This document shows, piece after piece, positions 4,596 through 59,400 of a stretch of 64,000 nucleotides of DNA. Below the pieces are notes generated by a model. That model was not told the DNA's origin. It searched no databases and saw only the letters and a program-made list of their open reading frames with translations. Where the stretch lies: NCBI RefSeq assembly GCF_006345805.1, contig NC_042997.1:30442001-30506000 (forward strand), read 5' to 3'. Origin of the DNA: Octopus sinensis. Taxonomy: Eukaryota. Each line of letters starts with the position of its first letter. Position 1 is the first letter of the stretch. The translations under genes and the position numbers were made by a program.

Positions 4596-5199
4596 TTTTT
4601 TTTTTTTTACTACCCACAAGGGGCTAAACACAGAGAGGACAAACAAGGACAGACAAACGGATTAAGTCGATTATATCGACCCCAGTGCGTAACTGGTACT
4701 TATTTTATCGATATCCGTAAGTATGAAAAGCAAAGTCGACCTCTGTGGAATCTGAACTCAGAACGTAACGGCAGACGAAATATCTATTTCTTTACTACCC
4801 ACAAGGGGCTAAACACAGAAAAGACAAACAAGGACAGATATAGGTATTAAGTCGATTACATCGACCCCAGTGCGTAACTGGTACTTAATTTATCGACCCC
4901 GAAAGGATGAAAGGCAAAGTCAACCTCAGCGGAATTTGAACTCAGAACGTAACGGCAGATGAAATACCTATTCCTTTACTACCCACAAGGGGCTAAACAC
5001 AGAGGGGACAAACAAGGACAGACAAACGGATTAAGTCGATTATATCGACCCCAGTGCGTAACTGGTACTTATTTAATCGACTCCGAAAGGATGAAAGGCA
5101 AAGTCAACCTCGGCGGAATTTGAACTCAAAAAGTAACGGCAGACGAAATACGACTACGCATTTTGCCCGACGTGCTAATGTTTCTGCCAGCTCGCCGCC
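4596..5199 (-). mobile_element. SINE family D trimer (one head, three bodies/tails)
   Basis: Head GGCGGCGAGCTGGCAGAAAC at 5199; ~185-bp body repeated, junctions near 4783 and 4967; single TSD TTAGTAATAATT at 4584-4595 and 5200-5211. Confidence 0.9.
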
Positions 5200-5499
5200 T
5201 TAGTAATAATTGGCGCACTTCCCTGTGTCGGTAAATGTTTGGTGCTTTGGAAAACCTGGGATTTTAAAGTAAAGAAATAGACTGACCCTCCCTTTACCAC
5301 TACATCTTGTTGGTAGAACAATGAAAATAATACTTGTCTGAAGTTGAACACGTTACCTTTATTGCTGTTAATAAACTCCATCGATAGAAACCAGCTTCTT
5401 TCTTGTAGGAAGAATTCAGATAATCAAAAAGCGGAAAATAGAATATGTACTTAATATATTTTTATCAATCACTTGGTTACGTGATTAACTGCCTCAGTA

Positions 5500-5895
5500 C
5501 CAATATTTTGGCACAAGGTTAGTGAATTTAGGAAAGTTGGTAAGATGGTTATATCGGTCCCAGTGCTCAACTGATACTTATTTTATCGATCACCGAAAGG
5601 ATGAAAAGCAAAGTCGACCTCTGTAGAATCTGAACTCAGAACGTAACAGCAGATGAAATATCTATTTCTTTACTACCCACAAGGGGCTAAACACAGAGAG
5701 GACAAACAAGAACAGACAAACGTATTAAGGCGATTACATCGACCCCAGTGCGTAACTGGTACTTATTTAATCGACCCGGAAAGGATGAAAGGCAAAGTCA
5801 ACCTCAGCGGAATTTGAACTCAGAACGTAACGGCAGACGAAATACCGCTAAACATTTTGTCCAGCGTGCTAACGACTCTGCCAGCTCTCCACCCT
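5500..5895 (-). mobile_element. SINE family D dimer (young-tail unit plus older-tail unit)
   Basis: Junction near 5662 at the same position as in the trimer; the 3' unit ends in the alternative ...CTTGTGCCAAAA tail. Confidence 0.85.
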
Positions 5896-24312: not shown

Positions 24313-24910
24313 TGAGCAAAACTCGAAATAAATCTTTTAAATACATTATGTTGCTTGTAAAACACATTTAGTCAAGAACACTTTCAATAATAGCACATGC
24401 TAACACGAGGAAAGTGTTGATTTGCTAAGTTTATAAATCTAAGTCATTCGCACACGCTTGCTGCATTTTCAGTGATATGAAACACTGTGTTTGTAAATAG
24501 AACCTTTAATGCTGCAACAAGCATGAATGAATGAATTATTTCGTTTAAGGAAATCCCATGTTAGTTTATCAACAAGATCTATAAGACGTGATATTTAAAT
24601 AGATTGGCGGCAGTTCGTGCTCAAATGTCAAGTTATCGTCTTACACAGTAAATTATTGTAACAAAAGTTGAGAGATAAATAATTATTCATCTAAGAACTG
24701 CTTGTATTTCCGGGCAAGTAGAGAAATGACAACAGATAAATATATTTCTTAATACTTATTCTAAATGATAGGTCTACTTATAGCATTCCATTACTATTGT
24801 GTGTCACAGTTGATAGCGCCAACAGAATGATGGGCAATCAAGGAAAGTGTCACGGTTTCGTTTCGTCATTGATACAACTCAACGTTCAAGGCTAAGGTAT
24901 ATTGAAATCA

Positions 24911-25139
24911 GCCGGCGAGTTGGCAGAAACGTTAGCACGCCGGGCGAAATGCTTAGCGGTATTTCGTCTGCGTTACGTTGTGAGTTCAAATTCCGCCGAG
25001 GTCGATTTTGCCTTTCATCCTTTCGGGGTCGATAAATTAAGTACCAGTTAGGCACTGGGGTCGATGTAATCGACTTAATATCTATGTCTGTCCTTGTTTG
25101 TCCCCTCTGTGTTTAGCCCCTTGTGGGTAATAAAGAAAT
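24911..25139 (+). mobile_element. SINE family D, full length
   Basis: 16-bp TSD AGGTATATTGAAATCA at 24895-24910 and 25140-25155. Confidence 0.95.
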
Positions 25140-25282
25140 AGGTATATTGAAATCACACAGAATCTATTCACTTGCAAATAAAATAGATAACATGTTCGTA
25201 GCACAGCCTTTCCTGTACTCTTCGAAGTAAACATCATATGAAGACTCGGAAATTCCGGCGAATCAAGTTCACAATTCAGGTT

Positions 25283-25868: not shown

Positions 25869-26324
25869 GTTTGATTAAGTTTAGCCAGTATCACGATTCA
25901 TTAGACATACTTTCGTGGAGAGCAGACAGCATATCATCATAAGTACTTTACAGGACTAACAAACTGTGTACTGCTCCAGCACCGTTGTATTTGAATTTCA
26001 TATCGTAATACTTCACGCGTTATTCTTTCTCTTAAACTGCACACTTCTGAAACCTTACCCATGTTTGTTATTTTAGAAAACTTGGACTTGCAGAAAATTA
26101 AACTTGGCATCAACCTCATTGACTTAAGGGTTGTGTGCACCGTTTAACTTCCTCGTTTTAATAATGTTTAAAACAGAACAGTTCCCTTGCCTTCAGCCCA
26201 TGTGACCGCACCGTCTTTTTCGCCTTTACTCTCATACAAAGGGCACAGCCCTAAACGTTTCTTTCTTCATTTTTCTCCCTAATCACCATCTTGAACACCA
26301 ATAGTTGTACATTAGGAAGAAAAA

Positions 26325-26557
26325 AGGCGGCGAGCTGGCAGAAACGTTAACGCGCCGGCCGAAATGCTTAGCTGTATTTCGTCTGCCATTACGTTCTGAG
26401 TTCAAATTCCGCCGAGGTCGACTTTGCCTTTCATCCTTTCAGGGTCGATAAATTAAGTACCAGTTACGTACTGGGGTCGATGTAATCGACTTAATCCGTT
26501 TGTCTGTCCTTGTTTGTCCTCTCTATGTCTAGCCCCCTGTGGGCAATAAAGAAATAA
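26325..26557 (+). mobile_element. SINE family D, full length
   Basis: Consensus head-to-tail match. Confidence 0.92.
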
Positions 26558-34448: not shown

Positions 34449-34682
34449 AAAGTAAAGGTTATATTGAACAGTAAAGGTTATACTATTCCTGATATGCAAA
34501 TGACTGGAGTATCTCGAGTATCATAATTTTGTTGCACTAAAATTCATACGGAAATACACAATAACAAAGTTTTACTTCGAACCAACTAAGGAAATCATAC
34601 GCGTTCACCAGAAACATTCAGGTGGAAATAAAAGAGGGAAATAACTTTGCTCAAAGGTCGCCTAGATCATGACTAACCTATA

Positions 34683-34911
34683 TATTTCTCTACTACCCAC
34701 AAGGAGCTAAACACAGAGGGGACAATCAAGGACAGGCAAACGGATTAAGTCTATTACATCGACCCCAGTGCGTAACTGGTACTTAATTTATCGACCTCGA
34801 AAGGATGAAAGGCAAAGTCGACCTCGGCGGAATTTGAACTCGGAACGTAACGGCAGACGAAATACGGCTACGCATTTCGCCCGGCGCGCTAACGTTTCTG
34901 CCAGCTCGCCT
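34683..34911 (-). mobile_element. SINE family D
   Basis: Consensus match. Confidence 0.92.
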
Positions 34912-37645: not shown

Positions 37646-38128
37646 ACACCCGCCTCCCAACTTTTTTTTTCTATCTAATAGTTAGTGAGCTGGCAAAAAC
37701 GTTAACAATTTTGATGGTGTCAGGGTAGTTCAATTGCATCGACCTCCAACGCTCAACTGGTACTTATTTTACCGACTCCGAAAGATGGGAGGTAAAGTTG
37801 ACATCAGAGCGTAAAGACGGACGAAATGCCGCCAAACATTTTGCTTGATGTGCACACCGCCTTAAAAGAACTCAATATTGGTTACATGGTAAGTTATAGA
37901 TATTCATTATCTATTTCTTTACTACCCACAAGGGGCTAAACATAGAGGGGACAAACAAGGTCAGACAAAGAGATTAAGTAGATTACATCGACCTCAGTAC
38001 GTAACTGGTACTTATTTAATCGACCCCGAAAGGATGAAAGGCAAAGTCGACCTCGGCGGAATTTGAACTCAGAAAGTAGCGGTAGACGAAGTACCGCTAA
38101 GCATTTCGCCCGGCGTGCTAACGTTTCT

Positions 38129-39859
38129 TATTTCTTTATTACCCACTAGGGGCGACACAGAAAGGGACACTAAGAAACATGGGGACATATAACATTATAA
38201 TTAAACTTTATGAACATGAATTGTTAAACGAAAAAATGATTAAATGAAAGCGATACCAACGGCCCCGTCCGTCAGCATCACTTACCTGTCCTTTGTTTTT
38301 CATAGTCACTTGAATGTTCCTTGCCAATACGAACAAATTCCATATCCATTCTTACTCCGAAATACTCATCCATATTTTCACGAATTCATCGCTCATTCTT
38401 ATATCTTTCACCTCCAATTCTCGCATTCACACATCACCATAAAGTCACCTATGTTCTTCTTTTCAATCACAGCATACCTAGTCTCACCAACATCATACCA
38501 TTTATACTCTTCCATTAGACTTTTAACTTCTTTCTGTTCAGTCATAGTACAAATGTACGGCCTGATATCGATTTCAATCTCTTGTGTGTGTGTATTCTTT
38601 TTTTTCTTTTGTTTTCTTGTTGGGGGGGAGCGGGTGGGTCAATGTCTGCATGGATAGGGTGGGACTCAGAGGGCGTGGGTGGTTTTGGGGTGGATTGGAG
38701 TTCCATATTATTTTCTTTTCCACGTATTCTTCTCTTCCTCTTACTTCCAGCTTCCTTCCATTTCTGTGTATTCTCTTCCTCTGTTCCTTCTCCTCTGGTT
38801 TCTGCTTCTCTCTCTCTGGTTCGGGATCCATTTCTTTCCCTGGGGGAGGGCAGAAGGCTCTTATGTGACCCCTCAGGCCACACTTGTAACAACGTGGAGC
38901 CCTGCCCTCCACCCACACTCTCATGATCACTTCTCCCAGTCTGATGCTTTCCGTCAGGTCCACCAGTACCTCGGTCTCTGCCTGTACGTTCAGCTCCACT
39001 GTTACGCCTCTCCAGCCCTCGGACTTAACCGAGGCATGGAGAATATCCACTTCGTCCTCGTGGCGCTGATCACAGCCGCCACAATCCATTCTGCCTCCAC
39101 GTTTGGTGGCACTCCCTCCACCCTTATTCGTGTAATCCTCCTGTTTAAATACGTAGGTAACAGTGTTACCTTTTCCGACTTCACCGCCTTCGCCGCCATC
39201 TTCCTCGCTGCAGATTCACTTTTAAAATGCACAACTACGGTCCCATACTTGGATCCTCGAGTCAGAAAATTTATTTCCTCCTCAGTTCTTCGCAGGGCTT
39301 CCTCTATCCATTCCATGGTTACAACTTCTACCCTCTTCCTTTCGTTTGCGAACACCCTGTAAACAATGGTCCTCTTATCATACCATTCTTTTCTCCTGGG
39401 TGTCGGTGCCAGTTCCACCTCACCGCTTTCCTTTTTCATGTGTTTCTGGTAACTTGGTAGCTTGGCCAAGTCGACCCCTTTCTCTTCCGCCTTCTTGGTT
39501 ACACCGGCATAAGTATAACTCAGCTTCTTTTCCAATTTCCTTGCTGCCATTTCTAGCTCCTTCTCAGACATGTCTGATAAAGACTCGAAAACTCCAGCCT
39601 TTTCCTCCATCAGCTTCACTGCAATTGCCTGTTCCAGTTCTCATCTGTCGTGGACAAGTCTGTTAGAGACTCATAGTCCATTCCTTCTGTCTGACAGACC
39701 GAAAACGGCCGCCAAAACAGAAAAAAGTTTAACGCGCTGAACGAGCGAAACGCGAAACCGCGTCAACGCCGTTCAGAATTTCCACAACAACAACAACGCT
39801 TTTTGTTCTTTTTTACCGAATTTTCAGGAGCCGAAAAAAACACAACCGACGTCAAACGA
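38129..39859 (-). mobile_element. ORF1-only non-autonomous non-LTR retroelement (Tx1/L1-like, HAL1-type organisation)
   Basis: 15-bp TSD CGTGCTAACGTTTCT at 38114-38128 and 39860-39874; ~180-bp 5' UTR; one frameshifted ORF; tail CCCCTAGTGGGTAATAAAGAAATA; no EN or RT motifs seen. Confidence 0.82.
38280..39681 (-). pseudogene. ORF1p-like nucleic-acid-binding protein with CCHC zinc knuckle (frameshifted)
   Basis: Joins ORFs 39002-39619 and 38574-39089: RRM-like GTVVVHFKSE...RIRVEGVPP, then VWVEGRAPRCYKCGLRGHIRAFC (CX2CX4HX4C); probable ATG at 39681. Confidence 0.8.
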
Positions 39860-40473
39860 CGTGCTAACGTTTCTGCCAGCTCGCCGCCTTACTTTGTGTG
39901 ACCACGGCGGATTTTGGAAATATTGGTTTCAAATTTTGGCACTGGGCCAGGGGGTTTGAGGGAGGGGCAAAGTCGATTAATAAATCGAACTCAGTGTTCA
40001 ACAGGCACTTATTCTATTGATCCCCGAAAGGATGAAATGCAAAGTCGACCCCACTGAAATTTGAACACAGAACCTGAAGCCGGACGAAAGGACTTGGAAA
40101 ATATTAACCATAAAATAAACTGTTCCTGTCATTGATTTTTATTTATTTTTTTTTTTGCTTTGTTTGTCTTTTACTTTTTTGTTTGTGGCGGGGGTGGTGA
40201 CCTTGATTCGCGAAGGCATCCTAGTGCATCAAATTGTAGGGGACAGGATGTAACGTGTTAGGCAGATGATGAAATGGTCAAAATTTTACGTGCGACTAAC
40301 ATCCTAGCTTGGAGCGTAAATGTTTCATTTTAACTGCTTCTTAATGCATTGAAAACTGAGATAAGCTCCTGTATACACAGCCCCCACCGACGACTTCTTT
40401 TTTATTAATAGCAGTTGTGCATATAAAATGTATGCATGTAGGTCGCGTGTATGTATGTGTGTGTATATGTATG

Positions 40474-58086: not shown

Positions 58087-59400
58087 AAGAACGATATCTA
58101 CAGTCTCCTAAAGCCAAATTCACCGGTATACTACTCGGCGGCGAGCTGGCAGAAACGTTAGCGCGCCAAACGAAATGCTTAGCGGTATTTCGTCTGCCGC
58201 TACGTTCTGAGTTCAAATTACGCCGAGGTCGACTTTGCCTTTCATCCTTTCGGGGTCGATAAATTAAGTACCAGTTACGCACTGGGGTCGATGTAATCGA
58301 CTTAATACCTATGTCTGTCCTTGTTTGCCCCTTCTATGTTTAGCCCCTTGTGGGTAATAAAGAAATAGGTATACTACTTTCTTATGCCACTTCGCCTTGA
58401 CGAAATACCATGAAAGCAATGTTGGCCTTGACATCATCAAATCTTTCGACCGTGTCTGGCGAGTGAATTTCCTGCTGATACTACCCACTTTTCAGCTCTA
58501 CCAGTTTCTCATCTCTCGAACTGGTACTTCCCTATCAGTTCTCACTAAATCGGCTTGTTGTCGAAGCTCTTTTTGTTCCTCACTATTAATTCCAGCGTAC
58601 CCAATGGCTCTGTTTTGTTCCCTGCTCTCTTTCTTCCATACATTAATGACTGATTAGCTGTCACGTCCAGCAACATCCTCTTTTGCGCAGATAGCATTAT
58701 TCTTCATTATTCCCGAGTTCTATCCCACCGTGCATCATCTGCACGCAACCAAGGCACCACACGCCAAATCCGCACCGATTTCATTAAACGAGTACTTTGA
58801 AAGGATCCCCCAATGGAGTATACCAGTTTTGTCTATTTCAGCAGTAAAAGCAACACAAATGACACTCATATCAAATAAACACCATCGCGCCACACACCCT
58901 CTTAAGCATGAACAGCATGCAGCCAGAGCCCTAACAATTACTAAAAAAATTGGGAAAATTGGGAAAATTGGGAAAATGCTATCCCGGGAACATAGCGAGA
59001 ACTACATTCCAGCAACTAGCCCTTCTATTCATAACAAGCAGATACGTTAGCCCCAACAGTTATCGCCACTCTACTATGCTCAACTGAGGCTAGAATTGGA
59101 ATAGTGCATCCACATCTGGGACGGTGTTGCTGCTGCACACATCGATATCCTCAACAGCATCTAAATTTGGAACCCATCACACTGTTCGGTATGAGCGCTC
59201 TGAGAAGCATACCAGCTTATGGCTCACAACAGAATTTATTATCTCTCCCTTTTCTCCCGTTACTATAATAGCCTCTACTCCTCAGAACAAGGTGGGGGCC
59301 AAATCACCTCCACTCAACAGGAGTCTTGCGAAGAAGAGACATTAGCGCAGGTCTAGAAAGATTAAATCCGACCCACACTGCACACAATACCCAGTCCTCA
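57700..59400 (+). pseudogene. CR1/L2-group LINE RT remnant
   Basis: ISKVMEAAINNVVFQRLES, LDIIKSFDRVW, FCADSIILH (YADD-like) and CIHIWDG; interrupted by (CT)n and a SINE D. Confidence 0.72.
58136..58367 (+). mobile_element. SINE family D, full length
   Basis: 11-bp TSD GGTATACTACT at 58125-58135 and 58368-58378. Confidence 0.95.

Follow-up and report, generated by a model that had tools for sequence, protein, structure and literature searches.

A family of ORF1-only retroelements in Octopus sinensis that shares its 3′ tail with a complete LINE and a SINE

The window analysed here is a stretch of 64,000 nucleotides of the Octopus sinensis genome (GCF_006345805.1, contig NC_042997.1, positions 30,442,001 to 30,506,000), and all coordinates without further label refer to it. 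On its minus strand lies a full-length ORF1-only non-LTR retroelement of subfamily A (38129..39859). The 1,731 bp of the element are enclosed by two identical copies of the 15-bp target-site duplication (TSD) CGTGCTAACGTTTCT, one on the 3′ side of the element (38114..38128) and the other on its 5′ side (39860..39874). The 5′ UTR (39682..39859), whose first 61-77 nt also form the 5′ end of helper-LINE copies at the same SINE site (see below), is followed by ORF1 (38278..39681), which encodes 469-471 amino acids in intact sister copies. In the window copy the frame runs from the ATG at 39681 to the TGA at 38278, and is spread over three frames by seven single-base losses. The ORF encodes a duplicated acidic N-terminal motif (39539..39675), two predicted tandem RRM domains (38904..39376), a CCHC zinc knuckle (38850..38891), a charged, proline-rich linker predicted to be disordered (38567..38834), and a fast-evolving alpha/beta C-terminal domain of about 80 amino acids that is exchanged between subfamilies (38320..38560). 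The element ends in a 3′ tail with a small predicted stem-loop (38129..38166), common to the helper LINE and the host SINE. No endonuclease or reverse transcriptase match was found inside 38129..39859. An earlier sequence-only reading of this DNA had described a perfect 15-bp TSD around 1.73 kb, one long frameshifted ORF with two N-terminal repeats, a CCHC knuckle, a charged linker and a C-terminal segment, and no APE endonuclease or RT motif, and each of these points was borne out, on the minus strand.

What that reading left out was the context of the insertion, in which it mentioned neither a target preference nor arrays. The window copy interrupts the head of an abundant SINE of about 237 bp, also on the minus strand, whose 5′ start (39875..39890) was split off by the insertion from its body and tail (37906..38113). 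The insertion point is GAGCTGGC^AGAAACG. Seven more copies of this SINE in the window cover 180 nt or more at 87-91% identity; SINE copies were seen at 4602-5893, 24910-25144, 26324-26556, 34679-34910 and 58137-58371, some of them as head-truncated tandem runs. The SINE head presumably carries tRNA-like A and B boxes; searches of the head with Rfam and ARAGORN gave no match. The tail of the SINE is 84% identical to that of the element over 38 nt, and the SINE is probably moved by the same machinery. The z-scores of the tail stem-loop are weak (-2.25 for the window element and +0.3 for the SINE and the LINE). Another LINE family has its insertion site about 30 nt deeper in the SINE head, at CGTATTTCG (L033, G000:C6:45200900-45206200; L120), and truncated SINE copies join at CGTATTTCG too.

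The frameshifts of the window copy were compared with four intact sister copies. Seven single bases are missing from the ORF, all within runs of two or three identical bases, together with one in-frame stretch of 6 nt, and only six substitutions separate the ORF from the nearest of the four. Contigs of public sequencing runs restored the base at all seven positions. Because the losses lie in short runs, the substitutions are few and the public contigs restore the bases, the frameshifts are probably long-read consensus errors of the assembly; this reading is likely rather than shown, since the public contigs reflect the majority of the family and not the window locus.

The protein encoded by ORF1 gave nothing above cut-off in a Pfam search, and no Transposase_22 match in Pfam-type domain searches. 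At a threshold of E≤1 all 13 family members matched the zf-CCHC profile (best E 1.8e-5), although below the Pfam cut-off for subfamily A. An AlphaFold2 model computed from a 15-sequence alignment is confident in the core (residues 70-280, pLDDT about 77-91) and in a domain at residues 379-457, with a disordered linker between them (residues 286-375, pLDDT <50). The best Foldseek matches of the core were the tandem RRM proteins IMP3, Sxl and U2AF65 (E 4e-5), and the RRM-like region noticed at first can thus be refined to two predicted RRMs (pLDDT about 80-91). ORF1p is therefore predicted to be of the RRM+CCHC type, which is called Type I in the available text of PMC5203782. The N-terminal repeat, modelled at low confidence (pLDDT 30-58), is a duplication confined to subfamily A, and a sister subfamily has one copy. 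The C-terminal segment, initially described as unrecognised, was predicted as a confident alpha/beta domain (pLDDT 82 when modelled alone) without a significant fold match: its sequence had no match in the PDB (best E 0.19), Foldseek had none at E≤0.001, and a comparison with 48,161 chains reached a best Z of 5.0. A ferredoxin-like fold, with a similar beta-alpha-beta-beta-alpha-beta order, was considered and rejected as unsupported, which gives no ground for proposing a new fold. Five protein homologs were found, all hypothetical proteins of Octopus vulgaris, and a profile search of 1.84 billion representatives returned 450 matches at E≤1e-10, which come without names or context.

The window element is one of many. 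A DNA search of its own genome, in which the best nine of 644 candidates were scored, found at least 18 copies of the same length at 94-100% identity. A protein search gave 96 matches, 16 of which span all 471 amino acids without a stop. Exact matches to a 28-nt tail motif occur 154 times in the genome and to its reversed control not once; not all of the 154 are ORF1-only copies (hereafter half elements), because one of the 28 tail-selected loci described below is a complete LINE. We fetched 66 regions, chosen by similarity to the window copy with only the best candidates scored; 13 of them were fetched for their LINE, and region C642, a duplicate of C10211, was dropped from the count. ORF2 in other copies would have made the window copy a one-off deletion, but none of the 150 ORF1 knuckles of the clade in these regions is followed by an endonuclease. 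The 3′ tail follows 728-788 nt downstream in 147 cases, and neither tail nor endonuclease in the other three. Conversely, all 29 ORF1s linked to an endonuclease in the 66 regions carry a different motif before the knuckle. Since the regions were picked by similarity and from the best candidates only, they could lack an uncommon parent that has ORF2 together with a closely similar ORF1. A second sample was selected by the tail and comprised all new non-array sites among the first 100 of the 154 listed tail matches, 28 loci in total. An ORF2 joined to the 3′ UTR of the half element was absent from all 28; one locus held a complete LINE whose last 32 nt are the same, a second had a LINE that ends immediately upstream, and a third was an unrelated match on the opposite strand. 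The half elements are a young, multi-copy family rather than a one-off deletion.

At least eight ORF1-only subfamilies form one clade (support 100/100) with core identities of 56-94%, whereas the core of subfamily A is 34-42% identical to seven aligned LINE ORF1 cores. ORF1 aligns with LINE ORF1 at E 4e-45, and is 39% identical to that of the LINE sharing the ends of the element. Between subfamily A and four sister subfamilies, the dN/dS of the core is 0.09-0.18 by NG86 and 0.14-0.26 by YN00, with several A-versus-B and deeper pairs not computable owing to saturation. These ratios, well below 1, show that the core is under purifying selection. For the C-terminal domain among A, A2 and C, dN is close to dS (dN/dS about 0.7-1). 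Subfamilies A2 and C share 60% of the core but 88% of the C-terminal domain, and C and B 93% of the core but only 25% of the C-terminal domain, so that the 3′ module is swapped by recombination; two core types are paired with at least four C-terminal types. Two more ORF1-only families, D (about 1.8 kb) and E, are only 33-39% identical to the window family. They have other C-terminal domains and are also stacked in front of LINEs (L079:5820-7223, L123:6059-7393, L195/L196, L208). D and E are possibly of independent origin: the ORF1 tree requires two changes to derive them and the window clade, 42% of the bootstrap trees allow one, and long branches meet there.

Two kinds of copies bear on the mode of transposition. 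First, 12 of the 28 tail-selected loci are 5′-truncated, with intact 3′ ends and TSDs of 14-20 bp at unrelated sites, and six further 5′-truncated copies lie outside this sample. Second, five of 135 long alignments have an excess of A-to-G changes on the sense strand (114 A-to-G against three other changes in one of them), compared with two and four in the controls. Such an excess is the trace expected from reverse transcription of RNA edited by ADAR. Hyper-edited copies with up to 125 sense-strand A-to-G changes were seen at L032 (G000:C5:19152405-19153718), L080, L146 and in the C5e array, and in L032 the changes are limited to the 5′ half of the ORF. Because the 5′-truncated copies carry TSDs and other copies are hyper-edited, these observations point to movement of the half elements through RNA.

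Complete LINEs with APE endonuclease (PF03372/PF14529) and RT (PF00078) domains occur in the same arrays as the half elements, and directly adjoin a half element in 11 of the 66 regions, two of the 11 being among the 13 fetched for their LINE. The candidate helper has an intact ORF1 of 515-552 amino acids and an intact ORF2 of 1,131 amino acids. Its last 33 nt share 31 identities with those of the window element. Three helper copies at the SINE site begin with the first 61-77 nt of the half element, which replace the usual 5′ end of the LINE, and L242 is a fourth helper copy with this start. As an element without ORF2 ends in a tail shared with complete LINEs, it is likely that it borrows the copying enzymes of a LINE, and this particular candidate is the likely source of the RT as judged from the tail. 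The helper is not uniquely identified and several are possible, because similar tails occur in at least three further LINE families that likewise lie next to half elements. The helper homologs have the RT+EN+zf-RVT (PF13966) layout of the L1/Tx1 group. The APE endonuclease, the RT, the C-terminal zinc finger (on the homologs), the RRM+CCHC ORF1 and the target preference match the Tx1 clade; the 105 helper homologs include no named animal Tx1 reference, and one fungal match at 26% identity is labelled TX1-like. We therefore consider the helper to be an L1/Tx1-type LINE, for which strict Tx1 membership is an inference. Hence, of the original proposal of a Tx1-type half-LINE that supplies its own RNP protein and borrows RT, the ORF1-only family, its selection and a LINE with the same tail were confirmed, and the source of the RT and strict Tx1 membership stay inferred. 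A second site, GGCATGGTTTGTCCGAT, inside a repeat, is also a frequent target of the helper LINE, which forms LINE-only arrays as well (L191, L192, L205, L207, L239-L249). Its ORF1 has an N-terminal tandem repeat, which at one locus has expanded so far that the open frame reaches at least 594 amino acids (L206/L207, G000:C10:103851000-103861000).

Taken together, the window element is very probably a full-length member of a long-established, ORF1-only, non-autonomous family in the L1/Tx1 group. The RNA of the element is likely packaged by the predicted RNA-binding ORF1p that it encodes, and the element is likely copied by the endonuclease and RT of a complete LINE able to recognise the 3′ tail common to both. 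ORF1p would act in cis and form an RNP with its own RNA, and the endonuclease and RT of the complete LINE would recognise the tail and carry out target-primed reverse transcription in trans. Arrays would grow as new copies insert, one after another, on the 5′ side of a resident one. Less surely, a few read-through RNA bases beyond the tail might pair with the nicked target and bias where a sub-lineage lands.

Having no endonuclease, the half element must have its target set by the helper or by its own RNA. Twelve of the 66 regions match the 5′ junction pattern GAGCTGGC^AGAAACG, one of which (C1d) is an antisense look-alike, and both full-length copies in the tail-selected sample are at the SINE head site. 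Other half-element lineages use a fixed site in one repeat, which we take to be Mariner-like by its end motifs, or an ORF1 fragment within another repeat, presumably Helitron-like, again by its end motifs. At L099 (G000:C6:117782000-117791999) one such recurrent target is a decayed ORF1 fragment inside a repeat with Helitron-like ends. Some half elements have inserted into the ORF of another half element, where a short stretch matches the 3′ extension of the inserted one (L077, L082, L083, L095, L105). That the endonuclease of the acting helper sets the target, as is standard for Tx1, with the matching RNA ends a by-product of earlier TSDs, has a somewhat better than even chance of being correct. 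The literature attributes target choice mainly to the endonuclease (available text of PMC4494074). Several LINE families with their own sites exist, the host SINE is also inserted at the same position in other SINE copies (C2b), and residue N116, just after YAPP, is present in all three SINE-site helper copies and absent from the other 14 aligned copies. Against this, helper copies from the SINE site differ from those at an unrelated site in only 2-3 of 240 endonuclease residues, although the 5′ head is particular to each target group, and elements that are nearly identical insert into different targets, which match the ends of the elements themselves. Junctions off the usual targets, moreover, open with the bases expected from read-through into the next unit: after the end variant AATCA, CC is found in 15 of 26 cases and AG in none, whereas after AAATA, AG is found in seven of 13 and CC in none (Fisher p 4e-4 for CC and 1e-4 for AG). 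This comparison covers junctions located neither at tags nor at canonical targets and excludes 13 that have other end variants; its classes were drawn up post hoc, and two pairs derive from a single array. In four cases CCA falls within a mapped TSD and hence belongs to the target. Given the post-hoc classes, the same-array pairs and the N116 marker, endonuclease variants or different helpers could explain the pattern, and we regard steering by RNA as a main determinant of target choice as rather unlikely. Similarly tentative is a broader proposal in which the landing site is inherited as RNA: both ends of a transcript would keep remnants of the last target and pair with new targets, so that lineages served by one helper endonuclease could colonise the SINE head, the Mariner-like end and the ORF1 fragment in the Helitron-like repeat. 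They would accumulate together with the helper in arrays, and the swappable C-terminal domain would be a further variable module.

Head-to-tail arrays of 2-9 units, in which half elements can be mixed with LINEs, are present in 32 of the 54 element-bearing regions. Their spacers are target-derived and change stepwise along the array, and one array (C9a) copies 5′ flanks of varying lengths; such spacers fit sequential insertion in front of a resident copy. The frequency of arrays could also be read as the mark of a satellite-like unit that spreads mainly by tandem duplication at the DNA level or is inflated by mis-assembly, and within array C5d some neighbouring spacers, and truncated units too, are repeated without change, a pattern expected from unequal exchange; the assembly, besides, has many single-base indels. 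This reading is improbable, since arrays mix diverged subfamilies and LINEs, the target-derived spacers of C9a differ in length, and solo copies carry their own TSDs. Some arrays also show what appears to be local duplication, which probably adds to them and does not explain dispersal. Still less probable is that an ordinary LINE lost its interior, once or repeatedly, and left ORF1 as a passive remnant. In favour of this, the window copy is frameshifted and agrees with a complete LINE at its 5′ end and in its tail, but the low dN/dS across at least eight diverged subfamilies and the lack of a linked endonuclease at any of the 150 knuckles rule it out, barring an unsampled close parent. The uniform knuckle-to-tail distance in 147 units, the low ORF1 identity to the LINE sharing its ends, and a shared 5′ end that in three SINE-site LINE copies is that of the half element also speak against it.

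HeT-A elements form head-to-tail arrays mixed with their RT-bearing partners TART and TAHRE, and carry 5′ tags from the upstream neighbour. HeT-A belongs to the Jockey clade and has a host function at Drosophila telomeres, whereas the octopus arrays are interstitial, in SINEs and other repeats, and have TSDs. Membership in HeT-A is excluded, as the half-element copies lie inside chromosome-scale contigs, within SINEs and other repeats. HAL1 is derived from mammalian L1, has an ORF1p with coiled coil, RRM and CTD, and ends in poly(A), in contrast to the mollusc host, the RRM+CCHC ORF1p, and the stem-loop with a short A-rich end of the octopus element, which unlike HAL1 also has recurrent targets and head-to-tail arrays. 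HAL1 proper is excluded by the lack of a Transposase_22 match and by the two predicted RRMs and the CCHC knuckle. The octopus element thus works like HAL1 and HeT-A and is a member of neither. According to the available portions of PMC5786205, PMC5753468 and PMC3414825, ORF1-present non-autonomous LINEs comprise HeT-A (Jockey), HAL1 (L1) and Ag-Sponge (CR1). The likeness to HeT-A is that of an ORF1-only element (PMC5786205), and that to HAL1 extends to a non-autonomous element with ORF1p only, an L1-group origin and several independent origins (PMC5753468, PMC5786205, as far as their available text goes). Ag-Sponge of Anopheles arose by internal deletion (PMC5786205, PMC3414825, same portions), belongs to the CR1 clade, and is likened to the octopus element by description and not by sequence. 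A preferred site inside another transposon is described for Tx1 in Tx1D and for Tx1-Mar and SINEU-3 in Mariner-N4_AMi, as are tandem insertions sandwiching a TSD and a dependent SINE that uses the same target (PMC4494074, available text). The dependent element SINEU-3 is non-coding, whereas the octopus half element keeps a selected ORF1 and its near-identical lineages use several host repeats. For R1Bm and SART1Bm, insertion is more accurate when a short RNA sequence, located at the 3′ end or past it, pairs with the nicked target, according to the accessible text of PMC7265360; in those elements such annealing refines one fixed, endonuclease-defined target, whereas in the octopus elements it might switch targets between lineages. 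A cephalopod repeat survey names L1-Tx1 only as a class in its available part (PMC8967140). The literature searched contained no ORF1-only Tx1-type or cephalopod element, and Repbase, subscription journals or supplements may already list the family.

The half-LINE family would add a fourth LINE lineage that gives rise to ORF1-only dependants, beside the three known. It is a young family with intact copies and an intact helper in one genome, and because the two coexist, the question of why ORF1 is retained, by cis packaging, co-assembly with the ORF1p of the helper or competition, becomes testable. In this genome the dominant SINE has its tail and its landing site in common with a LINE and a half-LINE. 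If it is true that the target follows inherited RNA ends, the octopus elements would be a natural case of re-targetable insertion by target-primed reverse transcription.
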